Virus record (IMG/VR): IMGVR_UViG_3300010365_001407
Location: 1 to 49,462 of that record
Source of the DNA: a virus
Taxonomy: Duplodnaviria > Heunggongvirae > Uroviricota > Caudoviricetes
Length of the DNA stretch: 49,462 bases
Direction: 5' to 3' (one strand)
Under the pieces are notes generated by a model. The model was not told the origin of the DNA and did no database searches. It saw only the letters and a program-made list of their open reading frames with translations. The position numbers and the translations under genes are program-made. Below are positions 14,429-46,625 of the stretch, in pieces. The stretch's first letter is position 1; each line of letters starts with the position of its first letter.

Positions 14429-14498
14429 TACCGAGAAAGGGATTCGAACCCTCCTATAGACGGATATGAGCCATCCATGGTCACCAAGACCCCTCGGA
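14429..14498 (-). tRNA. tRNA (CAT), Met-type, reduced D arm
   Basis: Anticodon arm GATGG-CTCATAT-CCGTC; T arm GAGGG-TTCGAAT-CCCTT; D hairpin only GGTC-TTGGT-GACC; 1:72 mismatch. Confidence 0.65.
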
Positions 14499-14505
14499 AT
14501 GTTAG

Positions 14506-14574
14506 CAGTAGATGTAGGATTCGAACCTCAACGCCCCATCATACGAGGAATTTTACCAATTAAACTATACCACT
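14506..14574 (-). tRNA. degenerate tRNA, apparent anticodon ATG (His?)
   Basis: D arm GTTT-AATTGGT-AAAA; loop GT-ATG-AT; TTCGAAT T loop; mismatched T and acceptor stems. Confidence 0.4.
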
Positions 14575-14641
14575 TCCTGATTATTTTTTATCTAGAACTA
14601 TTACATAATCAGTATTATACTTACCTTCCAGTAAGTTTTTG

Positions 14642-14715
14642 CGGGACCAACGGGATTCGAACCCGCACCACACACCGTGACAGGGTGGTATTGTAAACCA
14701 TTCAACCATGGTCCC
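14642..14715 (-). tRNA. tRNA-Asp (GTC)
   Basis: GGGACCA/TGGTCCC acceptor, CT-GTC-AC loop, G73. Confidence 0.92.
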
Positions 14716-14722
14716 ATTTTAG

Positions 14723-14796
14723 CAGACATACCCGGACTCAAACCAGGATCCACCCTCTGACACGAGAGTACTCTTACTCAATTAAGCTATATGTCT
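14723..14796 (-). tRNA. atypical tRNA-Asp-like (GTC)
   Basis: AGACATA/TATGTCT acceptor, G73; anticodon loop GTGTCA of irregular size. Confidence 0.55.
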
Positions 14797-14801
14797 ATTT
14801 G

Positions 14802-14877
14802 TCGGGGCACAGAGACTCGAACTCTGATGATGTCCACATCCCAAATGTGGCGACTTAGCCAATTAGTCCACACCCCG
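14802..14877 (-). tRNA. tRNA-Pro (TGG)
   Basis: CGGGGTG acceptor, CCACA-TTTGGGA-TGTGG, A73. Confidence 0.92.
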
Positions 14878-14940
14878 AAAAATTTAATTCTATGCAGACC
14901 AACTCTCTGTCCCTATGAATTAATAACAGTCTACCATGCG

Positions 14941-15013
14941 CGGTTTATGAGGGATTCGAACCCTCTCCGTACCGGGCGACAGCCGGACATCTTAGCCATT
15001 TGACCTATAAACC
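14941..15013 (-). tRNA. tRNA-Asp (GTC)
   Basis: GGTTTAT/ATAAACC acceptor, CT-GTC-GC loop, G73. Confidence 0.88.
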
Positions 15014-15020
15014 AATTTAG

Positions 15021-15094
15021 CAGTACTAACGGGACTCGAACCCGCAATCTCCACCGTGACAGGGTGGCGTCATACACCAATATGCTGTAGCACT
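15021..15094 (-). tRNA. tRNA-Asp (GTC)
   Basis: AGTGCTA/TAGTACT acceptor, CCACC-CTGTCAC-GGTGG, G73. Confidence 0.88.
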
Positions 15095-15100
15095 ATTTAG

Positions 15101-15173
15101 TCGAAAAGATGGGAATCGAACCCACTAACTGATGCCTCCAATGCACCCGTGCTTAAACCTTAGTCACTTCTCG
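15101..15173 (-). tRNA. tRNA-Pro (TGG), atypical D arm
   Basis: CGAGAAG/CTTTTCG acceptor, GGTGC-ATTGGAG-GCATC, A73. Confidence 0.7.
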
Positions 15174-15836
15174 TTATTTTAACCATTTTCTAATAGAATT
15201 ATCACTAACTCCATATTTTCTACCTGTACCACTATATCCAAACTCTAAAATATCTATATTTAATTGTTCTAAACTTGGTCTTTCTACTTTTCTTCTACTA
15301 TATTTTTCACACTTATTACATTTTTCAGAAATGTTTGTTATAATACAACCACATTTACAATAGTTTACTTTTTTATTTTTTAAGTTTTTACCAGCAAATG
15401 TATCTAAACCAGCATTACAATTAGGACATACTATTCTTAAATTTTCTATTCTATTATCATCATGTATACCATTTTTATGGTCTATAATTAATGATATTTT
15501 CATTCCATTCCAATTTTCATCTTGTCCACATAAACAACATTTTCTTTCTAATAATCCTTCATCATATAATCTCTTTTTAAGATGTCCTCTATTATATGAT
15601 GATTTTTCTACTAATATATCTGATAAATCTATTTTATTATATTTATTCAAATTAATCATTTTTTCATAATTATGAGAAAAATGTTTTGTGTCTATATCAT
15701 ACAAATCAATATACTTCTTTAATGTCTTTGAATTGCCACCTGATGATCTTATTCCCATTTTCTCTAAACACTCTTTTTGAGTTTTAGACTTTCTAACAAC
15801 TTCTTCTAAATTTTCTTTTAACCAAATGTTTTTCAT
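15174..15836 (-). CDS. HNH homing endonuclease inside tRNA array 1
   Basis: CCLCG...IDHKNG...DNRIENLRIVCPNCNA; C-terminal HTH-like GVSDNSIRKWL; stop codon abuts tRNA-Pro. Confidence 0.9.
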   Translation of the reverse strand: MKNIWLKENLEEVVRKSKTQKECLEKMGIRSSGGNSKTLKKYIDLYDIDTKHFSHNYEKMINLNKYNKIDLSDILVEKSSYNRGHLKKRLYDEGLLERKCCLCGQDENWNGMKISLIIDHKNGIHDDNRIENLRIVCPNCNAGLDTFAGKNLKNKKVNYCKCGCIITNISEKCNKCEKYSRRKVERPSLEQLNIDILEFGYSGTGRKYGVSDNSIRKWLK

Positions 15837-15911
15837 AATAGTATTTTATTTTACTATATATATTAAACTATTGAACCTTCTTTTACTACATTTTAACATT
15901 TAGTTTTTTTG

Positions 15912-15982
15912 TTGAGATACCAGGGCTCGAACCTGGACTGTGTGCGCCAAAAGCACATGTGCTACCATTACACCATATCTCA
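15912..15982 (-). tRNA. tRNA-Gln (TTG)
   Basis: TGAGATA/TATCTCA acceptor, TGTGC-TTTTGGC-GCACA. Confidence 0.92.
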
Positions 15983-16108
15983 GTATTTGGTATATCAGAG
16001 CAGGTTTAATGATGATATACCCATTAAAATACCTCTATCTTTTTATCTGTATCTCCACTTAAACCACTGGAGTGTCTCAAAGATTAAAACGCAATATTTT
16101 AATGTTTG

Positions 16109-16179
16109 TTAGAGTACTGGGGGTCGAACCCAGAGCACAGGATCCAAAGGCCTGAATATTACCATTATACGATACTCTA
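16109..16179 (-). tRNA. tRNA-Gln (TTG)
   Basis: TAGAGTA/TACTCTA acceptor, CT-TTG-GA loop. Confidence 0.88.
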
Positions 16180-16185
16180 ATTTAG

Positions 16186-16259
16186 CGGGACCAACGGGAT
16201 TCGAACCCGCACCGCACAGCGTGACAAGCTGGCATTGTAAACCATTCAACCATGGTCCC
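16186..16259 (-). tRNA. tRNA-Asp (GTC)
   Basis: Near-copy of 14642..14715 with a different anticodon stem; TT-GTC-AC loop. Confidence 0.92.
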
Positions 16260-16269
16260 ATTTTACTTC

Positions 16270-16306
16270 AAAAAAAAATCTCATAAGAACTAACTTATGA
16301 GATTTT
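16270..16306 (-). terminator. attenuator terminator upstream of tRNA array 1
   Basis: Minus strand AAAATCTCATAAG-TTAGTT-CTTATGAGATTTT plus U tract, between leader ORF and first tRNA. Confidence 0.85.
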
Positions 16307-16327
16307 ATATTTTTACATTGTAATTTC

Positions 16328-16396
16328 TTAATGTGATATAAATACATAGTTAGTCTGGTTCGTGATACGATCCTGATCCTGCATCGGCTGCGGCAT
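16328..16396 (-). CDS. leader peptide 1 MPQPMQDQDRITNQTNYVFISH
   Basis: ATG CCG CAG CCG ATG CAG GAT CAG GAT...CAT TAA; first 9 residues are only M/P/Q/D, matching array-1 tRNAs. Confidence 0.75.
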   Translation of the reverse strand: MPQPMQDQDRITNQTNYVFISH

Positions 16397-16431
16397 AACT
16401 ACTATATTTTTATATCACATTTTCATAATAC

Positions 16432-16490
16432 TATATATTAACTTTTTATTGTTCCTTTTTGTTTTTTCTTATTTTTATACTACAAAAGTA
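16432..16490 (-). promoter_or_regulatory. tandem promoters for array 1: late-type TAATATATA (16432-16440) and host-type TACTTTTG (16483-16490)
   Basis: Same arrangement as upstream of arrays 2 and 3. Confidence 0.7.
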
Positions 16491-16520
16491 ATATAAAGTT
16501 TTCAATTCACCTAATTTTTG

Positions 16521-16646
16521 TTAGATTTTTTTAATTTCTTTTTTAGAAAGTGCTCTTTCTGAGCTCCAAAAGATTCTTTTGTATTTCTTTCTCAAGTGTT
16601 TAGCCCATTCTTTACAAACAGCAAATTGTCCTTTTTTACCAGCCAT
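16521..16646 (-). CDS. small basic protein (41 aa), below ORF-track cutoff
   Basis: Manual translation MAGKKGQFAVCKEWAKHLRKKYKRIFWSSERALSKKEIKKI. Confidence 0.55.
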   Translation of the reverse strand: MAGKKGQFAVCKEWAKHLRKKYKRIFWSSERALSKKEIKKI

Positions 16647-16653
16647 ATTTTTA

Positions 16654-16812
16654 TTATTTTGAAATTATTATTTTTTTAATATTTTTTACTTTTTCCTCAA
16701 AATTCAGATGATTTCTAAGGTTATTAATAGTTGCATAACTTGCCCCAGTCATTAAAGTAATACTTGTATTACTTTCACCTTGTTTAATTAATCTTTTAAT
16801 TTGCTCATTCAT
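16654..16812 (-). CDS. small HTH-like protein
   Basis: MNEQIKRLIKQGESNTSITLMTGASYATINNLR; ATG at 16812 lies just downstream of TATCTTTG (16817-16824). Confidence 0.5.
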   Translation of the reverse strand: MNEQIKRLIKQGESNTSITLMTGASYATINNLRNHLNFEEKVKNIKKIIISK

Positions 16813-16834
16813 TTGACAAAGATACAACTTAATT

Positions 16835-17074
16835 TTAAGATAGACAAGAATATATGTCAATTCTTTGTTGTTCAGTTAAACCTTTTGAGAACCAATCTTT
16901 TTCTAACATAATTCTTAAATGCTCAACATTTCTATTTATTCTGTCTTTATCTTCTTCTGTTAAAGAAGGTAGTAATTTTAATTCATTAATTAGGTTAACA
17001 GAATCAAATGCAGATGATATAGATCTCTGTACTTGTTCTAGTGTTTGTTCTTCTGGGTTTATTGGTAATTCCAT
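16835..17074 (-). CDS. hypothetical protein
   Basis: ORF track. Confidence 0.55.
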   Translation of the reverse strand: MELPINPEEQTLEQVQRSISSAFDSVNLINELKLLPSLTEEDKDRINRNVEHLRIMLEKDWFSKGLTEQQRIDIYSCLS

Positions 17075-17079
17075 AATTT

Positions 17080-18300
17080 TTATTTATTTTTTCTTTTTAT
17101 TCTAAATGATTCATAAGTTTGTATATACTTCATATCATTTTTAGATTGGTCAATAACTTGTTCATCATTGTTACTTTTACCTGATTGACACATTTTTATA
17201 AAATTGTCTAATATTGGTTGTGTATCTTCAATATCTTCTGGATGAAAAAGTAAACCATAATGTTTCTTTTCATCATTTGCAATACCTGCAATCTTATCAT
17301 CTAGTTTAGCAATTGTTTTGAATCCTTGTGGACAATCTTCTAAGTAATCTTGAAAGTCAAAACTAACTTGTGTATTATCTAAATCTACACCATTAAATAA
17401 AGGATGTTCTTTGTCATATTCTTTTAATATAGTACTATCATCATATGTTTTATCAAGAGTTGCTAAATTAGCACCATTCTCTTTACCCATATGTTGCATA
17501 CCATAACACATTCCCAAAATAGGACATTGTAATGATTTTAAAGCTTCTGCACTTGTTGCATATTCATTGTCTGATTCTGGATTAGATAATCTATATTCTG
17601 AACCTGTTGAAATAGCGCCAATTACTTTATCATTGTTATTTTTATTTAATTCTTCTGTATTTGATGTAACAACATGTTCTATACCTCTTCCCTTTAAGTA
17701 ATTTACTATATTATCTAAGTATCTATTTTCTTGAGGTTTAGTATTATTAATAACAAGAATAATATCACCATTAAAACTTGGCATTAGTTTAACTGATTCG
17801 GTATAAACATAACTATCTTTATATTTATCAATAAATGTAAAGTCTTTTGTATCTAATTGAAATCCAAATCTGTTGAAGAAATTAACTAATTCTTTAATTG
17901 TTTCATCTTCAAATCCAAACTCTGTTTCTTTATCATATTTAGATCCAAATCCTGTATAGTGTGCAATAGTAGTTTCACCAGGCATTGATATAGTAAATTG
18001 TGAAACCATTGAATCACCATATGTTACATCAATATTAAGTTTAAGGTTATCAGGATTTGCTTCTGTACCATCATTAGTTTTAACCATACTTATATCAAAT
18101 TGTATAGTATCTGGTTCACCATCTTTATTAGCATCATTTGGACCATCAACAGTATTTTGATACCAAATAATTTGCATCTTATCACCATTAATAGTTAGGT
18201 CTGTTTGTTCTAACTCAAAGTGTCCATTATTAGTAACAACTTTTAGTTTTTGAGGTAGATATTTTCTCCAATCTTCTTTATCAAAAATTGATATATGCAT
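17080..18300 (-). CDS. unknown N-terminal domain fused to class I glutamine amidotransferase domain
   Basis: PILGMCYGMQ (catalytic Cys) and YGLLFHPE (His-Glu) motifs in the C-terminal half. Confidence 0.75.
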   Translation of the reverse strand: MHISIFDKEDWRKYLPQKLKVVTNNGHFELEQTDLTINGDKMQIIWYQNTVDGPNDANKDGEPDTIQFDISMVKTNDGTEANPDNLKLNIDVTYGDSMVSQFTISMPGETTIAHYTGFGSKYDKETEFGFEDETIKELVNFFNRFGFQLDTKDFTFIDKYKDSYVYTESVKLMPSFNGDIILVINNTKPQENRYLDNIVNYLKGRGIEHVVTSNTEELNKNNNDKVIGAISTGSEYRLSNPESDNEYATSAEALKSLQCPILGMCYGMQHMGKENGANLATLDKTYDDSTILKEYDKEHPLFNGVDLDNTQVSFDFQDYLEDCPQGFKTIAKLDDKIAGIANDEKKHYGLLFHPEDIEDTQPILDNFIKMCQSGKSNNDEQVIDQSKNDMKYIQTYESFRIKRKNK

Positions 18301-18338
18301 CTTATTGTATTTCTTTTTATGTATATATTAAAAAAGAA

Positions 18339-18360
18339 AAGTCAAGATTTCTCTTGACTT
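18339..18360 (-). terminator. hairpin after peptidase gene
   Basis: AAGTCAAGA tttc TCTTGACTT with flanking A/T tract. Confidence 0.6.
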
Positions 18361-18368
18361 CACTTTTT

Positions 18369-22013: not shown

Positions 22014-22883
22014 ATGAAATATTATGTATATGCTTATTTAGACTCAAAATTAGAAGAAAATATATCATTTGATGATATTATCTTCACACATAGACCTATT
22101 TATATAGGAAAAGGTAAAAACAATAGAATGTTTACACACCTCAATGATAGGAAAAGGTATAAGTATTATTTTTATAATAAATTAAATAAAATGATTTTAG
22201 AAGAGAATATACCATTAATAGTAAAGTTAAGAGAGTTTGAAAATGAGGAAGATGCTATTAATTTAGAAATTAAACTAATAGATTATTTAGGTAGAAAGAA
22301 ATCAGGTGGTTTATTATATAATATGACTGATGGTGGTGATGGTGTATCTGGTTATGTATATACTGATGAAGCTAAAGAAAAAATGAGTAAAAAGGCAATT
22401 GAGAACAAAAACCATATAAGATTACAAAGTTATTGGAATAAAAATACTATATTATCAGGTGAAAATCATCCTATGTTTGGTAAAAAACATAAACAATCAT
22501 CTATTGATAAAATGATTGAAAGTAGAACAGGTACTAAACAGAGTGAAGAGTGGATTGAAAAAAGAGCTGCTAAGTTAAGAGGAATTCCACTATCACAAGA
22601 ACATAGAGATAAATTAGCAGAGGTAAATAGAGGTAAGTTAGTTTCAGATGAAACAAGACAAAAACAATCAATTGCAAGACTTGGTAAAGAACCTCACAAT
22701 AAAGGTAAAATAAAGGATATTATTTTACAAATTGATTCTAATGGTATTATAGTAAAAGAATGGAATAACCTAAATGAATTGATTGATTATGGCTTTCAAA
22801 AGAGTAATGTTATAAATGTTTGTACAGGTAAAAGGAAATCACATGGTGGATTTATATGGAAATATAAATCAGACTATAATTAG
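22014..22883 (+). CDS. GIY-YIG homing endonuclease with NUMOD3-like repeats and NUMOD1
   Basis: YVYAY...IYIGKG..NR, YNMTDGGDG, GENHPMFGKKH, NVINVCTGKRKSHGGFIWKY. Confidence 0.88.
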   Translation: MKYYVYAYLDSKLEENISFDDIIFTHRPIYIGKGKNNRMFTHLNDRKRYKYYFYNKLNKMILEENIPLIVKLREFENEEDAINLEIKLIDYLGRKKSGGLLYNMTDGGDGVSGYVYTDEAKEKMSKKAIENKNHIRLQSYWNKNTILSGENHPMFGKKHKQSSIDKMIESRTGTKQSEEWIEKRAAKLRGIPLSQEHRDKLAEVNRGKLVSDETRQKQSIARLGKEPHNKGKIKDIILQIDSNGIIVKEWNNLNELIDYGFQKSNVINVCTGKRKSHGGFIWKYKSDYN

Positions 22884-23576: not shown

Positions 23577-23580
23577 GTTG

Positions 23581-23661
23581 AGCTAGTGACAGGATTTGAA
23601 CCTGCGGTGTTGGAGTTCCTACTTACAAGGTAGGTGCAATCGACCACTATGCGACACCAGC
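23581..23661 (-). tRNA. tRNA-Thr (TGT), extended variable region
   Basis: CCTAC-CTTGTAA-GTAGG; 12-nt variable region; U73. Confidence 0.85.
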
Positions 23662-23669
23662 ATTTTATG

Positions 23670-23743
23670 AGCTTCTCATTGGATTCGAACCAATAACATC
23701 CACATTACTAAAGTGGTACTCTGGCCAGTTGAGCTAGAGAAGC
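23670..23743 (-). tRNA. tRNA-Thr (AGT)
   Basis: GCTTCTC/GAGAAGC acceptor; loop TT-AGT-AA; U73. Confidence 0.8.
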
Positions 23744-23752
23744 ATATTTTAG

Positions 23753-23840
23753 AGGTATAGGTAGGATTTGAACCTACGATGATGAAATTAATCATTACAG
23801 TTTTGCAGACTGCACCTTTCGACCACTCAGGCACTATACC
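23753..23840 (-). tRNA. tRNA-Cys (GCA) with long variable arm
   Basis: GCAGT-CTGCAAA-ACTGT; about 19-nt variable region; U73. Confidence 0.82.
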
Positions 23841-23849
23841 ATTTTTCAG

Positions 23850-23922
23850 AGCTTCTGGCCGGGCTCGAACCGACGACATCCTCATTACAAGTGAGGTGCT
23901 CTACCAACTGAGCTACAGAAGC
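23850..23922 (-). tRNA. tRNA-Thr (TGT)
   Basis: Canonical cloverleaf, CCTCA-CTTGTAA-TGAGG. Confidence 0.93.
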
Positions 23923-23929
23923 ATTTTAG

Positions 23930-24000
23930 AGGTGCTGACTGGATTTGAACCAGTGTAGGAGGTTTTGCAGACCTCTGCCTAACCACTCGGCCACAGCACC
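23930..24000 (-). tRNA. tRNA-Cys (GCA)
   Basis: Canonical cloverleaf, GAGGT-CTGCAAA-ACCTC, U73. Confidence 0.93.
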
Positions 24001-24002
24001 AT

Positions 24003-24581
24003 CTATTTTATTTCTAAAAGATTTTCATGTATTTCTCTATGACAATTTGCACATACTAAAATACACTTATCTAATTCATCTTTAATCTTATCCCAAGCTG
24101 TACACATATTTTTAGATAGTGTAAAATCTTTTTTAGAGGGATCCAAATGGTGAAACTCTAATGCGGATACACACTTATTATATTCACATATAACACATTT
24201 ACCACCTTTATATTCTACTGCTTTTTCTTTTGTTCTTTTTCTAAATGTTTTTGTTCTTATATAGTTAGACTTTCTTCTATCATCATCACTATCAAATGTA
24301 AACTTTTTATTCTCACCATATTTGGTAACGGTACTTCTACCTACACCAAATTCCTTCATTGTTTCCTCTATAGAATTTAGTTTATAAAATTCTTTCAATT
24401 TTTCAATTTCATCTTTATCTAACTTTTTACCAGAATTAAGACCTATATCATTTAACATTTCACTCTTACAAAAGTAAGAAATTAAACTTCTAGAACAATT
24501 TAATTCTTTTTGTATTTCTCTATAGCTTTTACCTTGTTTTCTTAGTAAAATTATATTTTCTTTTTTAGAACCTTCAACCAT
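24003..24581 (-). CDS. HNH homing endonuclease inside tRNA array 2
   Basis: N-terminal HTH; CVICEY...LEFHHLDP...CILVCANCHREIH. Confidence 0.9.
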   Translation of the reverse strand: MVEGSKKENIILLRKQGKSYREIQKELNCSRSLISYFCKSEMLNDIGLNSGKKLDKDEIEKLKEFYKLNSIEETMKEFGVGRSTVTKYGENKKFTFDSDDDRRKSNYIRTKTFRKRTKEKAVEYKGGKCVICEYNKCVSALEFHHLDPSKKDFTLSKNMCTAWDKIKDELDKCILVCANCHREIHENLLEIK

Positions 24582-24627
24582 AACATATCTTTTTATGATA
24601 TATATTAATTTTTTGGTTCTACCTTTG

Positions 24628-24700
24628 TTGGTACTGTGGGTTACGATCCCACTACCTTTCGCGTATCAGGCGAATGCTCTACCGAGTGAGCTAAGTACCA
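24628..24700 (-). tRNA. tRNA-Ile (GAT)
   Basis: TTCGC-CTGATAC-GCGAA; T loop ATCGTAA is atypical. Confidence 0.85.
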
Positions 24701-24708
24701 ATATATTG

Positions 24709-24782
24709 TGATTCCTGTAGGATTCGAACCTACGACCTCTTGCATGTTAAACAAGCGCTCTTACCAGCTGAGCTAAGGAATC
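24709..24782 (-). tRNA. tRNA-Val (AAC)
   Basis: GATTCCT/AGGAATC acceptor; CTTGT-TTAACAT-GCAAG; A73. Confidence 0.82.
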
Positions 24783-24787
24783 TCTTG

Positions 24788-24870
24788 TAGGTCTACTCGG
24801 ACTCGAACCGAGATTATACTTCACGTCTCTTCCATGTAAAAGAAGGATGTTGCCATTACACCATAGACCT
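24788..24870 (-). tRNA. tRNA-Val (TAC), long variable region
   Basis: CTTCT-TTTACAT-GGAAG; 16-nt variable region. Confidence 0.8.
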
Positions 24871-24876
24871 ATTTAG

Positions 24877-24957
24877 TTGGCACAGAGGGATTTGAACCCA
24901 CATTTTCAACAACCATTTACAGTTCTCCAACTTATCAGGTTGGGCTGGTATGTGCCA
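24877..24957 (-). tRNA. D-armless tRNA-Ile-like (GAT) with very long variable region
   Basis: TGGCACA/TGTGCCA acceptor; only TACCAGC before CCAAC-CTGATAA-GTTGG; 25-nt region before the T arm. Confidence 0.6.
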
Positions 24958-24962
24958 ATATG

Positions 24963-25049
24963 CTACTGGGGTGGGATTCGAACCCACGGTGGAGCAGTGC
25001 TCATCAGATTAACAGTCTGAACCGTTCGACCAACTACGGCAACCCAGTA
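24963..25049 (-). tRNA. tRNA-Asn (GTT) with long variable arm
   Basis: TCAGA-CTGTTAA-TCTGA; variable hairpin GAGC-ACT-GCTC; G73. Confidence 0.82.
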
Positions 25050-25056
25050 ATTTTTG

Positions 25057-25127
25057 CTCTCCCACCAGGACTCGAACCTGGAATAACTGATTAACAGTCA
25101 GACGTGATACCATTTCACCATAGGAGA
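25057..25127 (-). tRNA. tRNA-Asn (GTT)
   Basis: Canonical, CT-GTT-AA loop; identical to 25340..25410. Confidence 0.93.
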
Positions 25128-25138
25128 ATATATTTTTG

Positions 25139-25212
25139 TTGACAATACTGGATTCGAACCAGTGACCTTCCCACTCGACAGGGACACTCTAACCAGACTG
25201 AGCTAATCATCA
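25139..25212 (-). tRNA. tRNA-like gene, anticodon undetermined (possibly CGA)
   Basis: Good acceptor, D and T arms; anticodon arm TCCC-TGTCGAGT-GGGA is irregular. Confidence 0.5.
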
Positions 25213-25339
25213 TAGGTAAATGTCGCACCCTTTTGTAATCTCTACCTCCACTCATGGGAGGACACAATTCTAACTTCCTTATTTCCAATTAGGTGCGAAC
25301 TAATTTTTCATATATCTGTTCCAATAGGCATTTACTTTG

Positions 25340-25410
25340 CTCTCCCACCAGGACTCGAACCTGGAATAACTGATTAACAGTCAGACGTGATACCATTTCA
25401 CCATAGGAGA
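25340..25410 (-). tRNA. tRNA-Asn (GTT), duplicate
   Basis: Exact copy of 25057..25127. Confidence 0.93.
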
Positions 25411-25420: not shown

Positions 25421-25456
25421 AAAAAGAAAAGACCCAAACTTTATGTTCGGGTCTTT
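25421..25456 (-). terminator. attenuator terminator upstream of tRNA array 2
   Basis: Minus strand AAAGACCCGAAC-ATAAA-GTTTGGGTCTTT-TCTTTTT. Confidence 0.85.
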
Positions 25457-25480: not shown

Positions 25481-25570
25481 TTATACTATACATAACTGCT
25501 TACCCGATGTTGTGTTATTCACACAATTCGTAATCGTAATCACATTAATATTTATAGTAGTTGTTTTCAT
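25481..25570 (-). CDS. leader peptide 2 MKTTTININVITITNCVNNTTSGKQLCIV
   Basis: 29-aa ORF starting 6 nt after TAATATATA; residues 3-21 are only T/I/N/V/C, the array-2 amino acids. Confidence 0.85.
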   Translation of the reverse strand: MKTTTININVITITNCVNNTTSGKQLCIV

Positions 25571-25575: not shown

Positions 25576-25646
25576 TATATATTAAATTTTTATTGTCCCT
25601 TTTTGGTTTTTTTTGTTTTTCTTTGATTATTTATAGTACAAAAGTA
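25576..25646 (-). promoter_or_regulatory. tandem promoters for array 2: TAATATATA (25576-25584) and TACTTTTG (25639-25646)
   Basis: Motif recurrence at the same relative positions as arrays 1 and 3. Confidence 0.7.
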
Positions 25647-25847
25647 ATATAAAGTTTTTAATCTACCTAATCTTTTATTATTTATTTTGATAATTTTTTT
25701 TAATCTTGTCTGAAATCATATTTCCAATTCTTTCTCTTTCCTTTTGTTCACTATCATACTTACCTGATAAGTAGTCATATGTCATTAACATACCTGTTCT
25801 TTTATCAATGTCCTCTTCATTGGGCCATATTTCCCACATATATTCAA

Positions 25848-26292: not shown

Positions 26293-26305
26293 ATCTTAGT
26301 TTTTG

Positions 26306-26386
26306 TACGCCTGGAGGGACTCGAACCCTCACACCTTTCGGCACTAGCTCCTAAGGCTAGCGTGTCTACCATTCCACCACAGACGC
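26306..26386 (-). tRNA. tRNA-Leu (TAG)
   Basis: CTAGC-CTTAGGA-GCTAG, variable arm, A73. Confidence 0.93.
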
Positions 26387-26395
26387 ATATTTTTG

Positions 26396-26482
26396 TACCC
26401 CTACCCAGACTCGAACTGGGAACGTATCATTGTTTTCCACGGTGTCTTAGACCGCAAGCTTTACCAATTTGCTCATAAGGGC
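26396..26482 (-). tRNA. tRNA-Leu (AAG)
   Basis: GCGGT-CTAAGAC-ACCGT, long variable region, A73. Confidence 0.8.
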
Positions 26483-26487
26483 TTTTG

Positions 26488-26568
26488 TACCCCAGATAGG
26501 ATTCGAACCTATATTTTCAGTTTCCAATTACCCGTAGTTGTTTAGAAGACAACTGGGACTACTGAGGC
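26488..26568 (-). tRNA. D-armless tRNA-Arg-like (TCT) with very long variable region
   Basis: GCCTCAG/CTGGGGT acceptor; GTTGT-CTTCTAA-ACAAC; T arm ATAGG-TTCGAAT-CCTAT; same 81-nt layout as 24877..24957. Confidence 0.6.
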
Positions 26569-27324
26569 ATATTTTAACCATTTTCTTATAGAGTTATCAC
26601 TAACTCCATATTTTCTACCTGTTCCACAATATCCTAATTCTTTAATATCTATTTCTAATTGTTCAATTGATGGTCTTTCTTTTATTCTTAGTGATTTAGT
26701 ATGACATGTATTACAATTTTTTGATGTCTTTTTTATTTGTTTACCACAAGAACAAATATTTTTAATTTTTAATTTTTTAACTTTTATTTTTTTAACTTCT
26801 TCTAATTCACTTCTATTCAAATATTTCTCATTTCTATATTCTGATTTACTACTTTTATTTAGGTTACCACCACAATATGTAGATGTTTGACTATGACAAT
26901 TTGGACACAATATTCTTAAATTATCTATTCTATTATCCATATTATTACCATTTATATGGTCTAAATGAAATGATAGTGGTTTACCACACCAGCTTTCTAT
27001 ATTACATAATTCACATTTACTATCTTTTAATCCCTCTTTTATTAATCTAATTTTAAGATGATGTGTACTTGTATAAGTAGAGTTCTCAACCAAAATATCT
27101 GATATATCTGTTATTTTATTAACAGGTTTATATCTCAAACCAGTATTCCAACCTTGTCCTGTAAAGTGTGATATATCTATATCATATAAATTAATATACT
27201 TTTTTATTGTCTTATAATTACCACCTGCTGGCCTAATTTCTAATCTTCTACAAACTTCTGCAGTGGATAAAACCTCCTTTACTATTTTTTCCAACTCTTC
27301 TTTATCAATCTTATACTTACTCAT
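26542..27324 (-). CDS. HNH homing endonuclease inside tRNA array 3
   Basis: CELCN...HLDHINGNNMDNRIDNLRILCPNCHSQT; paralogue of 15174..15836; C-terminus overlaps the tRNA at 26488..26568. Confidence 0.9.
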   Translation of the reverse strand: MSKYKIDKEELEKIVKEVLSTAEVCRRLEIRPAGGNYKTIKKYINLYDIDISHFTGQGWNTGLRYKPVNKITDISDILVENSTYTSTHHLKIRLIKEGLKDSKCELCNIESWCGKPLSFHLDHINGNNMDNRIDNLRILCPNCHSQTSTYCGGNLNKSSKSEYRNEKYLNRSELEEVKKIKVKKLKIKNICSCGKQIKKTSKNCNTCHTKSLRIKERPSIEQLEIDIKELGYCGTGRKYGVSDNSIRKWLKYASVVPVVF

Positions 27325-27395
27325 AATTAAAATTATTTTAGTATATATATTAAAAAGTTGTGTCTTCCTTTTTATTTAACTTTTCAGTTCAATTG

Positions 27396-27469
27396 TATCT
27401 GGGACGGGAGTCGAACCCGCAGCTTACAAGGCTTAAACTTGTTGTGTTTTCCAGTTTCACCACCCAGAC
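27396..27469 (-). tRNA. tRNA-Leu (TAA) lacking the long variable arm
   Basis: Leu-type D loop; ACAAG-TTTAAGC-CTTGT; 5-nt variable region. Confidence 0.75.
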
Positions 27470-27474
27470 ATTTG

Positions 27475-27558
27475 TACCGAGAGCGGGACTTGAACCCGCA
27501 CGCCACAAGGGCACAAGATTTTAAGTCTTGCATGTACTACCAATTTCATCACCTCGGC
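27475..27558 (-). tRNA. tRNA-Leu (TAA)
   Basis: CAAGA-CTTAAAA-TCTTG, variable arm, A73. Confidence 0.93.
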
Positions 27559-27568
27559 ATTAATTTTA

Positions 27569-27670
27569 ATTAATAGTAGGACTTGAACCTACACTAAGTT
27601 TATTTCATCCTTAGCCATATCCTCTATATCTCTGTATAAAGTTAGGTGTTTACCAGTTCCACCATATCAA
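27569..27670 (-). pseudogene. tRNA-Leu-type body with expanded, non-canonical anticodon/variable region
   Basis: D arm GGTGGAACTGGTAAACAC and T arm GTAGG-TTCAAGT-CCTAC present; no standard anticodon arm. Confidence 0.5.
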
Positions 27671-27673
27671 TTG

Positions 27674-27747
27674 TGACTCCGACAGGGCTCGAACCTGTGA
27701 CCCACAGATTAGAAATCTGTTGCTCTATCCATCTGAGCTACGGAGCC
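27674..27747 (-). tRNA. tRNA-Arg (TCT)
   Basis: Canonical, ACAGA-TTTCTAA-TCTGT. Confidence 0.93.
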
Positions 27748-27752: not shown

Positions 27753-27790
27753 AAAACAAAAAACCCAAAACTTTTTGAGTCTTGGGTTTT
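27753..27790 (-). terminator. attenuator terminator upstream of tRNA array 3
   Basis: Minus strand AAAACCCAAGACT-CAAAA-AGTTTTGGGTTTT-TTGTTTT. Confidence 0.85.
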
Positions 27791-27813: not shown

Positions 27814-27915
27814 TTACCAACTAAAATCATTTCCAAATTGAGCAAAACCCATCCCTTGTCTCAAAGATAAGACAGTCAGTGTTAAGTTTCTTCTATTTAG
27901 AATTGTTGTGTTCAT
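27814..27915 (-). CDS. leader peptide 3 MNTTILNRRNLTLTVLSLRQGMGFAQFGNDFSW
   Basis: 33-aa ORF starting 6 nt after TAATATATA; Leu x5 (CTA,TTA,CTG,TTA,TTG) and Arg x3 (all AGA) within residues 6-19. Confidence 0.8.
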   Translation of the reverse strand: MNTTILNRRNLTLTVLSLRQGMGFAQFGNDFSW

Positions 27916-27920: not shown

Positions 27921-27980
27921 TATATATTAAAGTTTTATTCTCTCTTTTTGTTTATTTGTTATTTTTATAGTACAAAAGTA
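27921..27980 (-). promoter_or_regulatory. tandem promoters for array 3: TAATATATA (27921-27929) and TACTTTTG (27973-27980)
   Basis: Motif recurrence. Confidence 0.7.
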
Positions 27981-28005
27981 TAAAAAGTTTTCTAATGTAC
28001 CTAAT

Positions 28006-41826: not shown

Positions 41827-41839
41827 AGAGGGTTTTTTT
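41814..41839 (+). terminator. hairpin/terminator at dcm stop
   Basis: AAAACCCTCT taa AGAGGGTTTT-TTT. Confidence 0.7.
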
Positions 41840-41850
41840 ATATATAATAT

Positions 41851-42540: not shown

Positions 42541-42549
42541 TTTATTATA

Positions 42550-42792
42550 TTATTTAGTTGAACAATGTTGGTGACCACATTTTTTATGTCTGCACTTATA
42601 TGAAGTAAAAAGAAGAGGTATAAGACAACAAAAAATGTGAAACTTAAATCCATATACTAAAATGAATCCAAACCAACCTAGCCATCCAAAATCAAGTGTA
42701 TCAAGATTTATATTGAAGAAATAGGAGATTGAATGTTCAATTAAATAGAACAGGATAAATGATAATATAAATGTGATTATAAATTTTTTCAT
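42550..42792 (-). CDS. small membrane protein
   Basis: Two hydrophobic segments, Cys/His-rich tail. Confidence 0.55.
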   Translation of the reverse strand: MKKFIITFILSFILFYLIEHSISYFFNINLDTLDFGWLGWFGFILVYGFKFHIFCCLIPLLFTSYKCRHKKCGHQHCSTK

Positions 42793-42860
42793 AGGTTTTT
42801 TATTTGTTAGTATTTGTTAAAAACATGTAACATCATGATATATAATATAAAATAATATAA

Positions 42861-43571: not shown

Positions 43572-43607
43572 ACTGCAAATATAATAAAAATATTTTATAT
43601 ATAAGGT

Positions 43608-43796
43608 ATGAAATACCTAAAAAAGTTTTTAATAACAGAGAGAGTTGACTTAGATGAATTACAAGAACTTTGTGATAATACTTTAGCTTATCTTATTGAT
43701 GAAGGATTTAAAGTAGAAATTAATCAATTTAATGCTAAGGGATATATTGCAATTCTTTTAAGAAAAAAACATGGTGATAGAAAACATCAAAATTAA
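43608..43796 (+). CDS. small protein with CTS-like N-terminus, possibly truncated
   Basis: MKYLKKFLITE start; TATATA upstream. Confidence 0.45.
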   Translation: MKYLKKFLITERVDLDELQELCDNTLAYLIDEGFKVEINQFNAKGYIAILLRKKHGDRKHQN

Positions 43797-44020
43797 CTTT
43801 TACAATATCACCACAAAAAGTAATGAGACCTGTTCTTGTTATTCTAAAGTAAAATTCAAACATCTTATTAAAATTGTTTGAATATTTTTTAAGTTTACGA
43901 TCATTTCTGGATCCAACACTCTTTTTAGTCTGTTCTATTCTATCTTTCTTATTAACGTCACAGTAAGACTTATCTTCTGTGACTATTGTGCGACCTGCTG
44001 TCTGTTTGTTTTCATATTGT

Positions 44021-44317
44021 TTATAATTTTGGAATAACTGATCTACTATATATTGAATTATTGTTAATCTTATAATTTAAAGTATTACCATCTAAAAAAA
44101 TTACTTTAACTTCATTTATATTATTTATATCTAAAAAATCAAATTTATATTTCTGTGAGGTATGTATTTGTCTATCAATTCTTTCTGGTTTATCTTCAAA
44201 AAGTCTGTCAAAACCAGCCATACTATTCATATATAACTCTTCTGATTTTCCAAAAATACCTTCATCACTATATAATATAAAATAATTAGAACTATTTTTT
44301 ACTTCTTTTAAAATCAT
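44021..44317 (-). CDS. hypothetical protein
   Basis: ORF track; ATGA overlap. Confidence 0.5.
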   Translation of the reverse strand: MILKEVKNSSNYFILYSDEGIFGKSEELYMNSMAGFDRLFEDKPERIDRQIHTSQKYKFDFLDINNINEVKVIFLDGNTLNYKINNNSIYSRSVIPKL

Positions 44318-45111
44318 ACTATTAAATATTTTTTATCAAAGGTTTCAATCCTTTGTAGTAATTCTATTATAGAAATAGAAGAAGTTTTGTTTTTTGACAC
44401 ATTTTCATTGTGTATCATTAACTTACAATTAGCAGGATGTGATAATAATTTTGGATCAATCCCTTGTTCAAATCCTTCTTTAATAGAAAACATATGGTCT
44501 CTACTAACTCCACCTAAATTATTCTTCTTATTTGATGGTGAATACCATCCATATTTCTCAATTAATGTAAAGTCAAATTCATCAGGATAATCATTTAAAC
44601 TAAATTTAAAATTACAATCTGTTCTGTAACATTGTAATACATCTTTATCTTTTCTTTTGAACTCTTTTTGACAAATATCAGAACAAAATTTTCTTCTCCT
44701 GTTCTCAAAACTTATTTTACCTTGGCAAAACTTACATTCTTTTGGATTTTCATCATAATTATTATTAGTATGTTTAAAATTTATTGATGCTGATTGTCTA
44801 TACTTTATTAAACTTTCTTCAGTTATGTTATATTTTAAACCCTTTCTGTTTATATTAATTACTTTTTTACTACAATCTTTAGAACAGTATAAATTTTCTC
44901 TATATTCATAGGGTATATCATTATTACATTCTTCTAATTTACATTTTTTTGGAATATATTTTTCTTTGTAACTATTTTTTACACCTTCTATATTTTTTGA
45001 GTAATCTCTTAAATATTTATTAACATAATAGTTTCTACAAGATAAAGAGCAATATAATTTTTTACCTATTACTTCATTATTACAATCAATATTTTTACAG
45101 TTCATAACCAC
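44314..45111 (-). CDS. HNH-type homing endonuclease at the 3' end of tRNA array 4
   Basis: Repeated YCS..C zinc motifs; VSRDHMFS...HPANCKLM..NEN. Confidence 0.75.
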   Translation of the reverse strand: MVMNCKNIDCNNEVIGKKLYCSLSCRNYYVNKYLRDYSKNIEGVKNSYKEKYIPKKCKLEECNNDIPYEYRENLYCSKDCSKKVININRKGLKYNITEESLIKYRQSASINFKHTNNNYDENPKECKFCQGKISFENRRRKFCSDICQKEFKRKDKDVLQCYRTDCNFKFSLNDYPDEFDFTLIEKYGWYSPSNKKNNLGGVSRDHMFSIKEGFEQGIDPKLLSHPANCKLMIHNENVSKNKTSSISIIELLQRIETFDKKYLIV

Positions 45112-45155
45112 TTTTTATTTTTATATATAAAAAGTGGAGAACTCCCTTTTTGAAT

Positions 45156-45232
45156 TGGTGGAGACGGTGGAAATCGAATCCACCTCAGAAACCTTGCAAG
45201 GGTTTCTCGCCAGCCTTGGTACATGCGTCCCC
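45156..45232 (-). tRNA. tRNA-Ala (TGC), CCA encoded
   Basis: G3:U70 pair, AAACC-CTTGCAA-GGTTT, ends ACCA. Confidence 0.9.
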
Positions 45233-45243
45233 ATTAATTTTAG

Positions 45244-45332
45244 AGCGAGTTGTGGGATTTGAACCCACGATGTGAACCTTATCTGACTGATTTGGAAGAC
45301 CAGTGCCATCGACCGAACTAGGCAAAACTCGC
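45244..45332 (-). tRNA. tRNA-Gly (TCC) with long variable region
   Basis: CTGGT-CTTCCAA-ATCAG; 18-nt variable region; U73. Confidence 0.8.
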
Positions 45333-45407
45333 ATTATTTCCTATGGTTTTAACTATAACTTATATACTTTTCAGTAGAAAGAGGTTATAATCTACACCAT
45401 TTATGTG

Positions 45408-45480
45408 AGCGAAAGACGGGACTCGAACCCGCAACAACCTGCTTGGAAGGCAGGAGCTCTACCAATTGAGCTACTTTCGC
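45408..45480 (-). tRNA. tRNA-Gly (TCC)
   Basis: Canonical, CCTGC-CTTCCAA-GCAGG, U73. Confidence 0.94.
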
Positions 45481-45558
45481 ATATAAGGTGACTGAACTCT
45501 TAAATAATCAACTCGCGATTATCATATCTAAGTTTCTATTAATTCTATACATCATTAC

Positions 45559-45630
45559 TTGGTCTGGGTAGGATTCGAACCTACGTTTCCTGTTACATAC
45601 AGGCGTCCTCACCACTAGACGATCCAGATT
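45559..45630 (-). pseudogene. degenerate tRNA-like element
   Basis: CGTC/GACG D stem and GTAGG-TTCGAAT-CCTAC T arm; 5-nt loop ATGTA; only 5-bp acceptor. Confidence 0.45.
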
Positions 45631-45674
45631 GCTAACTTTATATAAAATTAAATCACCTACCGGTTTTTTAATTG

Positions 45675-45748
45675 TTGGCAAGGTGGGTAACGATCCCACT
45701 CTCTCATGTGTATAAGACATACGCTTTTACCGTCTAAGCTACTTGCCA
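45675..45748 (-). tRNA. tRNA-Ile (TAT)
   Basis: TATGT-CTTATAC-ACATG; A73; T loop ATCGTTA. Confidence 0.85.
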
Positions 45749-45759
45749 ATATTATTTTG

Positions 45760-45833
45760 TAGTCTATACGGGATTCGAACCCGTGTCTTACCCGTGAAAG
45801 GGGCACGTCCTGACCTGACTAGACGAATAGACC
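45760..45833 (-). tRNA. tRNA-Glu (TTC)
   Basis: TGCCC-CTTTCAC-GGGTA; CGTC/GACG D stem. Confidence 0.92.
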
Positions 45834-45842
45834 ATATTTTTG

Positions 45843-45914
45843 TACTATTGACGGGGGTCGAACCCGCATCTCCCACCCTGAGAAGGTGGTTTCCTGCCAT
45901 TAGAAGACAATAGT
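45843..45914 (-). tRNA. tRNA-Glu (CTC)
   Basis: CCACC-TTCTCAG-GGTGG; body shared with 46054 and 46133 copies. Confidence 0.85.
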
Positions 45915-45920
45915 ATTTTG

Positions 45921-45988
45921 TGGGATGTGAGAGACTCGAACTCTCCTGCTAGCGTTTTACAGACACGGCTATCACCATAATCCATCCC
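45921..45988 (-). tRNA. degenerate tRNA-Tyr-like (GTA), reduced D arm
   Basis: GGGATG/CATCCC acceptor, CT-GTA-AA loop, T arm GAGAG-TTCGAGT-CTCTC. Confidence 0.5.
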
Positions 45989-46053
45989 AATTAGATATAT
46001 CATTTACACGGTGTTAGGTCTTACTATCCTGTTATAACTTATTTATATCTTTG

Positions 46054-46125
46054 TACTATTGACGGGACTCGAACCCGCATCTCCCGGTTTGAAAAACCAG
46101 TTTCCTGCCATTAGAAGACAATAGT
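46054..46125 (-). tRNA. tRNA-Glu (TTC)
   Basis: CTGGT-TTTTCAA-ACCGG. Confidence 0.88.
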
Positions 46126-46132
46126 GTTTTTG

Positions 46133-46204
46133 TACTAGTGACGGGACTCGAACCCGCATCTTCCGGTTTGAAAAACCAGCTTCCTGCCATTAGAAGACAC
46201 TAGC
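46133..46204 (-). tRNA. tRNA-Glu (TTC)
   Basis: Near-copy of 46054..46125 with compensatory acceptor changes. Confidence 0.88.
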
Positions 46205-46212
46205 ATATTTTG

Positions 46213-46295
46213 TGGGTGTAGTAGGACTCGAACCTACTCAGCTAATAGCAACGGTGTTACAGACCGCCATGACTCTCCAACTTCATCGTACACCC
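46213..46295 (-). tRNA. tRNA-Tyr (GTA)
   Basis: GCGGT-CTGTAAC-ACCGT, variable arm, A73. Confidence 0.9.
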
Positions 46296-46308
46296 TTATG
46301 TACTTTTG

Positions 46309-46391
46309 TGGGCAGAGAGGGATTCGAACCCCCGAACTCTAATGAGAGCAGTTTTACAGACTGCCAGCTTTAACCACTTGCATATCTACCC
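46309..46391 (-). tRNA. tRNA-Tyr (GTA)
   Basis: GCAGT-CTGTAAA-ACTGC, variable arm, A73. Confidence 0.93.
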
Positions 46392-46404
46392 AATTTATTT
46401 CAAT

Positions 46405-46439
46405 AAAAAAACCCAATCTGTTTTTGCCAGATTGGGTTT
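46405..46439 (-). terminator. attenuator terminator upstream of tRNA array 4
   Basis: Minus strand AAACCCAATCTG-GCAAAAA-CAGATTGGGTTT-TTTT. Confidence 0.87.
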
Positions 46440-46464
46440 GTTGTTTTATAATGTTTTTACTCCA

Positions 46465-46566
46465 TTACTTTATACACATAACGCTTCTGACCGATGGTAT
46501 TCTATACCCCGCCTCATATCCGCCTATCGCTTCTATTGCTATTGTTATGTTAGTAATTGTTGTCAT
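46465..46566 (-). CDS. leader peptide 4 MTTITNITIAIEAIGGYEAGYRIPSVRSVMCIK
   Basis: 33-aa ORF; residues 9-21 are only I(ATA)/A/E/G/Y, matching array-4 tRNAs; 6 of 7 Ile codons are ATA. Confidence 0.85.
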   Translation of the reverse strand: MTTITNITIAIEAIGGYEAGYRIPSVRSVMCIK

Positions 46567-46617
46567 TTTTTCTATTTTTTTAAATGTTTGTTGTTGTTTT
46601 GTTTTCTAATTCTTCTA

Positions 46618-46625
46618 CAAAAGTA
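46618..46625 (-). promoter_or_regulatory. host-type -7 box (TACTTTTG) for array 4, with TTTG about 20 nt upstream
   Basis: Matches the Bacteroidota primary-sigma consensus TTTG-N19-21-TAnnTTTG. Confidence 0.7.

Follow-up and report, generated by a model that had tools for sequence, protein, structure and literature searches.

How a phage with large arrays of transfer RNA (tRNA) genes might control their transcription is the question raised by IMG/VR virus record IMGVR_UViG_3300010365_001407 (Caudoviricetes). The stretch analysed, here called the window (49,462 nucleotides, nt), was the first 49 kb of a 113-kb contig from a huge phage of Bacteroidetes type, with a genome G+C content of 27%, and further tRNA genes lay past it. 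DNA of this phage was present in activated-sludge, wastewater and freshwater metagenomes, with small shares in a few metatranscriptomes. Leader-peptide attenuation is a textbook mechanism for amino-acid biosynthesis genes and a few synthetase genes, in which slow decoding signals a lack of amino acid. A reading made from the letters of the window alone (the sequence-only reading) had proposed that four tRNA arrays are controlled in this way, each through a short open reading frame (ORF) and an intrinsic terminator placed before the tRNA genes. The analysis indicated that these cassettes are most probably transcription attenuators of the leader-peptide, ribosome-mediated kind, and that each of them controls one module of phage tRNAs. 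The architecture held up at the sequence level: codon runs were in frame and array-specific, terminators were kept throughout the relatives, the antiterminator co-varied with its terminator, and the leaders were re-partitioned together with their arrays.

Leader composition and tRNA content

ARAGORN identified 38 tRNA genes in the window, all on the minus strand and grouped in four arrays. The tRNA calling combined ARAGORN with Rfam and, as a supplement, a lower-threshold ARAGORN run; Rfam and the supplementary run added a Pro gene (15100-15176), a Tyr gene (45919-45990) and an Ala-TGC gene (45156-45230) inside the arrays. Array 1 (14428-16259, minus) carried Asp-GTC x4 and one Asp-like gene, Gln-TTG x2, Pro-TGG x2, and Met-CAT. 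Array 2 (23580-25410, minus) carried Asn-GTT x3, Ser-CGA, Ile-GAT x2, Val-TAC, Val-AAC, Cys-GCA x2, Thr-TGT x2, and Thr-AGT. Array 3 (26305-27747, minus) carried Arg-TCT, an odd tRNA-like element (27568-27671), Leu-TAA x2, Leu-AAG, and Leu-TAG. Array 4 (45156-46391, minus) carried Tyr-GTA x3, Glu-TTC x3, Glu-CTC, Ile-TAT, Thr-TGT, Gly-TCC x2, and Ala-TGC. The "ATG-anticodon element" that the sequence-only reading had placed in array 1 was not found, and the two Arg-TCT genes that it had counted in array 3 were one clear Arg-TCT and the odd element of 104 nt.

Upstream of each window array the parts stood in the same order, namely promoter motif, short ORF, terminator and, within about 10 nt, the first tRNA gene. 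The layout claimed for the four arrays was thereby borne out on the minus strand, and two more cassettes of this kind lay outside the window. A leader rich in Lys, Phe, His and Trp codons upstream of the array at genome position 58688 had been predicted before inspection, and the sixth cassette was found by a motif scan. The six arrays of the contig (four in the window and two outside) jointly covered all 20 amino acids.

The four window leaders, all on the minus strand, were 22-33 codons long. In leader 1 (MPQPMQDQDRITNQTNYVFISH, 16328-16396), codons 1-9 were all Met, Pro, Gln or Asp codons and all were readable by array 1 (p = 3e-4). In leader 2 (MKTTTININVITITNCVNNTTSGKQLCIV, 25481-25570), codons 3-22 consisted of Thr, Ile, Asn, Val and Cys codons plus a TCG, which matched the Ser-CGA of array 2. 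Leader 3 (MNTTILNRRNLTLTVLSLRQGMGFAQFGNDFSW, 27814-27915) contained 5 Leu and 3 AGA-Arg codons within codons 6-19, the AGA codons preceding Arg-TCT, and leader 4 (MTTITNITIAIEAIGGYEAGYRIPSVRSVMCIK, 46465-46566) contained six ATA and one ATT, plus Glu, Ala, Gly, Tyr and Thr-ACA codons. Outside the window, leader 5 (MRTNFKHTSFSKSFKWFSHKFG..., genome 59284-59391), composed of Phe/Lys/His/Trp codons, was located upstream of the array at genome 58688 and was followed by a terminator. The cassette of leader 6 (MKTIISTHIVRVQSTTSSSSSSRSSK..., genome 57036-57140) lay inside that same array; this Ser/Arg(CGC) leader used AGC, TCG, TCA, AGT, TCT and CGC, and was followed by a terminator, Arg-ACG, Ser-TGA x2, Ser-GGA, and Ser-GCT.

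The codons readable by each array were derived from its anticodons by standard wobble, with the codon usage of the long ORFs of the genome as baseline, and each leader was scored by its best 20-codon window with a binomial tail against genome codon usage. Own-array codons in that window numbered 9, 19, 8, 16, 12 and 11 for leaders 1-6, and the corresponding tails were 3e-4, 1e-10, 1e-3, 1e-7, 1.6e-5 and 6e-8. Leaders 2 and 4 were each the top scorer for their own codon set among the 416 short ATG ORFs of the genome. In the 6 x 6 matrix of leaders against arrays, the true diagonal had a summed log10 p of -35.6, the best of 720 pairings (runner-up -29.7), in agreement with the claim that each leader matches only its own array.

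Synonymous codons were also distributed according to the anticodons. Leader 4 had ATA ahead of Ile-TAT and leader 2 had ATT ahead of Ile-GAT, and across all leaders the use of ATA versus ATY tracked Ile-TAT versus Ile-GAT (Fisher p = 0.006). For Arg, the use of AGR versus CGN across leaders showed the expected direction in an under-powered comparison (odds ratio 9, p = 0.11). Leaders 1-6 preferred NNG codons, as in CCG CAG CCG; among the A/G-ending pairs read by U34 tRNAs, NNG accounted for 27/58 codons (47%) versus 12.6% in long ORFs (p = 3e-10). This bias fits selection for wobble-read codons that are sensitive to shortage, the alternative being a need of the RNA structures for G+C.

A Bacteroidetes sigma-A-type promoter motif preceded the leaders of cassettes 1-4 at 16483-16514, 25639-25670, 27973-28004 and 46618-46649 (all minus), with the shared consensus TT(A/T)GGTA..N..TAnnTTTG; in cassette 1 it read TTAG..N20..TAnnTTTG. 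TAnnTTTG is the -7 box of sigma-A in Flavobacteria/Bacteroidetes (PMC9723704). The motif occurred in 8 copies in the 113-kb contig and was almost confined to tRNA cassettes, 5 of the 8 lying upstream of tRNA leaders. A second, phage promoter-like motif, TTAATATATA, was present on the minus strand in cassettes 1, 2 and 3 (16432-16441, 25576-25585 and 27921-27930), each time with an ATG 5 nt downstream, and was absent from cassette 4. Numerous ordinary genes of the phage also had TTAATATATA upstream, their ATG lying at +4/5 or +19-26, and the +4/5 spacing of the leaders was the same as in many long phage genes. TTWATATATA was observed upstream of dozens of genes on both strands over the whole contig, with an ATG 4-5 nt or 19-26 nt downstream, which suggests a phage promoter that would yield leaderless or very short-leader messenger RNAs. 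The three short ORFs behind TTAATATATA elsewhere in the contig (89666, 7261 and 40650) were rejected as attenuators, and no attenuator-like unit was seen ahead of its protein genes.

Relatives were gathered from IMG/VR by the motif 5' of the leader ATG, which carries no information on ORF content. The scan returned 101 stretches, and about 50 examined matches, on huge-phage contigs, preceded an ORF of 24-40 codons and a tRNA array; it was far richer than an alternative search with a neighbouring 406-amino-acid protein, which gave just 3 loci. The matching of leader codons to array anticodons against shuffled pairings, put forward in the sequence-only reading as a check, was confirmed in these relatives: in 22 non-redundant complete leader/array pairs, leaders matched their own arrays at 0.545 and those of other pairs at 0.294 (p < 1e-5). 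Over 35 leaders, the own array could read 0.55 of the codons in the ORF frame, compared with 0.14 and 0.15 in the two shifted frames (p = 2e-7). The leader ORFs were kept open in all relatives, which, like the +4/5 spacing of the ATG, gives indirect support for their translation. The class of the leader was the class of the array, K/H/F/W(/S) leaders preceding Lys/His/Phe/Trp arrays, ..PQPMQDQD.. leaders preceding Asp/Pro/Gln arrays, A/G leaders preceding Ala/Gly arrays, and S/R(CGC) leaders preceding Ser/Arg-ACG arrays.

The closest public genome found was LR745206.1, an uncultured phage of 634,780 bp; Al-Shayeb et al. assigned complete genomes of 634-642 kb to the Mahaphage clade and predicted Bacteroidetes as their hosts (PMC7162821). 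LR745206.1 contained seven leader cassettes (342554-344291, 364870-367156, 387898-390332 and 406869-408120; L107/L001). Its Gln genes were located outside the Asp/Pro array and formed a Gln-only array with its own poly-Gln leader, MTTTQQIQQQQINQTD. The counterpart of array 4 was split, Glu/Tyr standing behind MNTITNIASYESYYEEG (..SYESYYEEG..) and Ile-TAT/Gly/Ala behind MKNLNNISIAVIGNGAGAI (..ISIAVIGNGAGAI...), while arrays 2 and 3 were merged, with Asn/Leu/Thr/Val/Ile/Met/Arg behind MTTMNLNMTMNLTLNVVNITLCNIR. Leader composition splits or merges along with the arrays across genomes. In the window, leader 3 also held Asn, Thr and Val codons, which belong to the neighbouring array 2; these look like relics of a merged Asn/Leu/Thr/Val/Ile/Arg leader known from relatives.

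The device is not universal among phage tRNA arrays, because a crude scan of Bacteroides phage crAss001 (cultured, 23 tRNAs) showed no matched short ORF or hairpin with U-tract in the array gaps, and the crAss-like phage cr127_1 had a lone tRNA-Leu and no cassette. The search yielded no cultured model phage with leader cassettes.

Chance and base composition could in principle imitate such a pattern, if short AT-rich ORFs happened to fall between an ordinary promoter and the terminator of a preceding gene, and if the tRNAs mirrored common codons. AT-rich genomes are indeed rich in short ORFs, and leader 3 taken alone was unexceptional, 23 of the 416 short ORFs scoring as high. However, the summed log10 p over the six cassettes, the best of the 720 pairings, the specificity for one frame and the two cassettes outside the window, which were as predicted, all contradict chance. 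Moreover, the terminators are downstream of the promoters, the layout was kept in 38 leaders, and the crude scan of crAss001 showed no similar layout. This explanation is effectively refuted by the statistics.

Terminators and candidate antiterminators

Each window leader was followed by an intrinsic terminator on the minus strand. That of cassette 1 (16270-16306) had a 13-bp stem (-13.9 kcal/mol) and a U-tract; those of cassettes 2 (25427-25456), 3 (27758-27790) and 4 (46405-46439) had stems of 12 bp (-16.2 kcal/mol), 13 bp (-14.7 kcal/mol) and 12 bp (-17.3 kcal/mol). A GC-cored hairpin of 12-15 bp with a U-tract (-14 to -17 kcal/mol) was present in the five of six cassettes that were measured, and the sixth (Ser/Arg) cassette showed a comparable hairpin and U-tract in a fold of the whole region. 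The terminator began 21-25 nt after the leader stop in the window cassettes, 21-32 nt in the six cassettes and 16-38 nt in the relatives, where it was found in 38/38 distinct leaders (-11 to -22 kcal/mol).

Within the leaders, a segment complementary to the 5' arm of the terminator (region 2) was located after the codon run. In cassette 1, region 2 (AGACUAACUAUGUAUUUA, 16339-16356, minus) pairs with the 5' arm and loop (-9.7 kcal/mol, p = 0.019). In cassette 2 (25501-25527, minus) the core UCGGGU pairs with ACCCGA of the 5' arm (-11.8 kcal/mol, p = 0.007), and the segment ranked 0 of 37 against foreign terminators. In cassette 3 (27843-27866, minus) UGGGUUUUG pairs with CAAAACCCA of the 5' arm (-12.3 kcal/mol, p = 0.067), and the identical leader in L003 ranked 0 of 37 against foreign terminators. 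The candidate strand of cassette 4 (46505-46525, minus; -9.9 kcal/mol) was weak. Over the five leaders of this genome, the best duplex between leader and terminator arm plus loop was located at codons 14-25, with dinucleotide-shuffle p values of 0.019, 0.007, 0.067, 0.32 and 0.032. The p value was 0.07 or lower in four of the five leaders; for leader 4 it was 0.32, which is not significant on its own.

In the relatives, region 2 always followed directly after the codon run, at codons of about 15-30. Leaders paired with their own terminator arm with a mean of -13.5 kcal/mol versus -9.1 kcal/mol with foreign arms, and none of 20,000 permutations was as good (0/20,000). In alignment A1 (11 Lys/Phe/His/Trp leaders), 7/8 antiterminator pairs were kept in 11/11 leaders and three pairs were changed on both sides, for example CAAGUUCGG|CCGAACUU versus CAUGUUCGG|CCGAACAU, with the terminator helix co-varying in step. 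The Asp/Pro/Gln class of the relatives also showed a compensatory change, CAGACTAAC|GTTAGTCT versus CAAACTAAC|GTTAGTTT.

The nascent RNA was folded with the ribosome footprint masked. In this model, region 2 holds the terminator arm when the ribosome is at codons 2-17 or absent, and the arm is freed when codons of about 18-27 are covered; in cassette 4 the arm pairing is lost with the ribosome at codons 23-24. In the ribosome-free fold the 5' arm was paired to region 2 with P = 0.8-1.0 in all five leaders. The model suggests that the default state without leader translation is probably read-through.

The same parts might act by another route. Translated, codon-matched leaders could work through Rho-dependent polarity, ribonuclease access or ribosome protection of the precursor, in which case the hairpins would terminate constitutively or serve as processing signals, and regulation might even have the opposite sign. 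tRNA precursors undergo extensive processing, and the hairpins might serve to mark 5' processing boundaries. However, a region 2 that co-varies with its own terminator and always lies just past the run has no role in a Rho or ribonuclease model, and a constitutive strong terminator between promoter and tRNAs would silence the arrays, which makes this route very unlikely.

Direct binding of tRNA by the leader RNA, in the manner of a T-box riboswitch, or a function of the short peptides themselves, is extremely unlikely. T-boxes are known tRNA-sensing terminator/antiterminator switches, and nothing specific pointed to them here. The codon runs are in frame with a fixed ATG, and the spacing between stop and terminator is fixed. 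A leader here names 4-8 tRNA species, but a T-box recognises a single one. Against a function of the peptides, what leader classes commonly share is a composition matched to the arrays, not sequence. Rfam leader families (Trp, His, Leu and Thr), T-box and other cis-regulatory families gave no match in 14000-47000 at E <= 1 or in the whole window at gathering scores, the matches being to tRNA or tRNA-like families only.

Several observations weigh against the attenuator reading. Leader 3 was the weakest match (8/20, p = 1e-3), with the many equally high-scoring short ORFs noted above, and the antiterminator of leader 4 alone was no better than shuffles. The leaders of the relatives are homologous to one another, and the counts based on them are non-independent events. 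The canonical start of leader 1 (16415-16426, minus), whose ATG follows TTAATATATA at 16426, opens just MKM-stop in this genome because of a -1/+1 double frameshift relative to the related loci L002, L003 and L015. The MPQPMQDQD ORF named in the sequence-only reading does exist, but it begins at an internal Met, which is Met-11 of the relatives' leader (..VVMPQPMQDQD..). The frameshift change also yields 13 nt that are complementary to the last part of the leader ORF. A 13-bp stem within leader 1, distinct from the terminator, is derived and has no counterpart in relatives. If TTAATATATA were used by a phage polymerase insensitive to intrinsic terminators, part of the transcription would escape control.

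The remaining adverse points concern the switch itself. The expected alternation of terminator and antiterminator, with compensatory changes, was recovered, but neither an anti-antiterminator (1:2) nor a pause hairpin appeared in the leader folds of the five leaders of this genome. Because the arm is already captured in the absence of a ribosome when no 1:2 element exists, the system would be ON by default, unlike trp; since some accepted attenuators do without such an element, this makes the cassettes less similar to trp and leaves their class unchanged. The distance from the end of region 2 to the stop was 0-39 nt and exceeded 15 nt in roughly half of the leaders. In these, a ribosome parked at the stop would leave region 2 exposed, and shut-off would have to depend on kinetics or trailing ribosomes. 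Shut-off may come about through ribosomes that cross region 2 while the terminator is being made, possibly with the help of trailing ones.

The default state also bears on the view that the same attenuators respond to the overall state of translation or the stage of infection, and not to tRNA scarcity, and so act as an early/late or stress switch. Such a switch would be open whenever the leader is translated slowly or not at all (for want of free ribosomes, or under amino-acid starvation or host shut-off) and closed during vigorous translation. The folding model, ON without a ribosome and lacking an anti-antiterminator, agrees with it, and a ribosome would stall equally for a missing amino acid or a missing tRNA. 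However, a general switch would need neither six leaders codon-matched to their own arrays nor leaders re-partitioned when arrays split, and the enrichment of wobble-read NNG codons points to sensitivity for specific tRNA species. A general-status switch is therefore considered rather unlikely, and codon-specific attenuation is preferred.

Proposed mechanism and known attenuators

We infer from the sequence the translation of the leaders and its coupling to transcription, together with the sign and size of the regulation and the physiological signal. Under the codon-specific attenuation model, host RNA polymerase would start at the Bacteroidetes sigma-A-type promoter, and possibly also at TTAATATATA, and transcribe a leader of 22-35 codons in which codons of about 3-20 are those read by the downstream tRNAs. 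Directly after this run, within the ORF (codons of about 15-30), region 2 would be complementary to the terminator 5' arm. When cognate aminoacyl-tRNAs are plentiful, ribosomes would cross region 2 while the terminator is made, the hairpin would form, and transcription would stop before the tRNAs. When any tRNA of the module is scarce, through codon demand, cleavage or decay, or lack of charging, ribosomes would queue in the run and leave region 2 free; region 2 would then capture the emerging 5' arm, and the polymerase would read into the array. Fresh tRNAs would let ribosomes move faster through the leader and close the gate again, so that each module is under its own negative feedback.

Since the leader codons match the array and the terminator appears to be switchable, each tRNA set is probably made just under slow decoding of its own codons. 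Read-through under scarcity of cognate charged tRNAs, with the resulting negative feedback, would follow from the anatomy and from the logic of trp, his and ilv. Clues to leader-peptide attenuation at amino-acid operons of Flavobacterium indicate that the host group uses such logic, and its -7 box, TAnnTTTG, has been described (PMC9723704).

A broader proposal, offered tentatively as a real possibility, is that the cassettes form a modular, self-tuning tRNA supply in huge phages. Their codon-resolved sensors would open upon depletion, including depletion by anticodon nucleases or by phage-induced decay of host tRNAs, so that attacked tRNAs are replaced on demand; the six sensors would monitor all 20 amino acids, and the NNG bias would tune them to shortage-sensitive codons. 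A sensor for tRNA cleavage inflicted by defence systems is plausible, and the present data do not separate it from general supply-and-demand control. Phage tRNAs neutralise PARIS, T5 tRNA-Lys acting against AriB (PMC11464382); there, phage tRNAs replace destroyed host tRNAs, a situation that the proposed sensor would detect. The T5/PARIS work concerns the tRNAs themselves, whereas the cassettes concern the control of tRNA genes.

Comparison with known attenuators showed both shared and distinct features. In the trp attenuator (trpL; RF00513), as in the phage cassettes, a contest between terminator and antiterminator is set by the position of the ribosome. In trp, however, a ribosome at the stop covers region 2 and a 1:2 hairpin leads to termination without translation, whereas in the phage region 2 is inside the ORF and the modelled default is read-through. 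The ilvGMEDA (Ile/Leu/Val) and thr (Thr/Ile) leaders resemble the phage cassettes in having a short ORF with several codon types, a terminator and an antiterminator freed by stalling, and in sensing several amino acids with one leader. These leaders govern biosynthetic enzymes, whereas the phage cassettes govern the tRNAs that read the regulatory codons; the phage cassettes further differ in being phage-borne, in having up to eight tRNA species per leader, in the lack of a detected 1:2 element, and in showing no similarity to Rfam leaders.

In Escherichia coli pheST, the pheM leader, with its many cognate codons, controls the Phe-tRNA synthetase genes. Among known cases it comes closest to a feedback of decoding speed on the decoding machinery, although it concerns a cellular synthetase gene and one amino acid, and the phage cassettes concern viral tRNA genes. 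T-box riboswitches respond to the state of one particular tRNA by switching between terminator and antiterminator ahead of translation-related genes, as the phage cassettes would; they do so by direct binding, with no ribosome or ORF and one tRNA per element, whereas the phage cassettes have leader ORFs and no T-box match.

Full-text searches of PubMed Central and bioRxiv turned up leader-peptide attenuation for amino-acid, synthetase, transporter and resistance genes alone. The same searches found no description of attenuators ahead of tRNA genes or of regulation of phage tRNA genes by decoding speed. The huge-phage paper lists tRNAs and contains no regulatory analysis (PMC7162821).

If true, the model would mean that slow decoding is answered by making the decoder, in a virus, with attenuation wired to tRNA genes. 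It would give a first picture of the regulation of large tRNA arrays in viruses and would explain their fixed amino-acid modules, each leader being a readable list of the codons that the phage treats as limiting. It would also tie the arrays to tRNA-targeting defences and the tRNA counter-measures of phages, and would provide a natural test of transcription-translation coupling in Bacteroidetes. As compact, orthogonal, codon-specific sensors, the cassettes might serve synthetic biology as reporters of individual tRNA pools.

Genes within and beside the arrays

The large gaps within arrays 1-3 were HNH homing-endonuclease ORFs, which split array 1 at 15174-15836, array 2 at 24003-24581 and array 3 at 26542-27324 (all minus), each behind its own TTAATATATA motif. 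An HNH-like ORF was also observed at genome 59164-58700, between the leader-5 terminator and the leader-5 array, and a GIY-YIG-like ORF was located between arrays 1 and 2 at 22014-22883 (plus).

A tRNA-Met(CAT) gene (46676-46749, minus) upstream of cassette 4 had its own TTAATATATA motif (46882) and neither leader nor terminator, and this leaderless unit behind the promoter motif was found in this genome and relatives alike. Because it carries a C1 x U72 mismatch, which suggests an initiator, this tRNA is probably the initiator, outside attenuator control. A Met unit without a leader would be expected, since an elongation sensor could not report on an initiator tRNA. A weak tRNA-like element (24.9 bits) at 46784-46854 (minus) adjoined this gene, likewise directly behind TTAATATATA and without leader or terminator.

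Odd tRNA-like genes were observed inside the arrays at 14722-14796, 26488-26568 and 27568-27671 and at genome 57189-57282 (all minus). Among them were one with an irregular anticodon loop (probably Asp-GTC), one of 104 nt and one called with a 4-nt anticodon.

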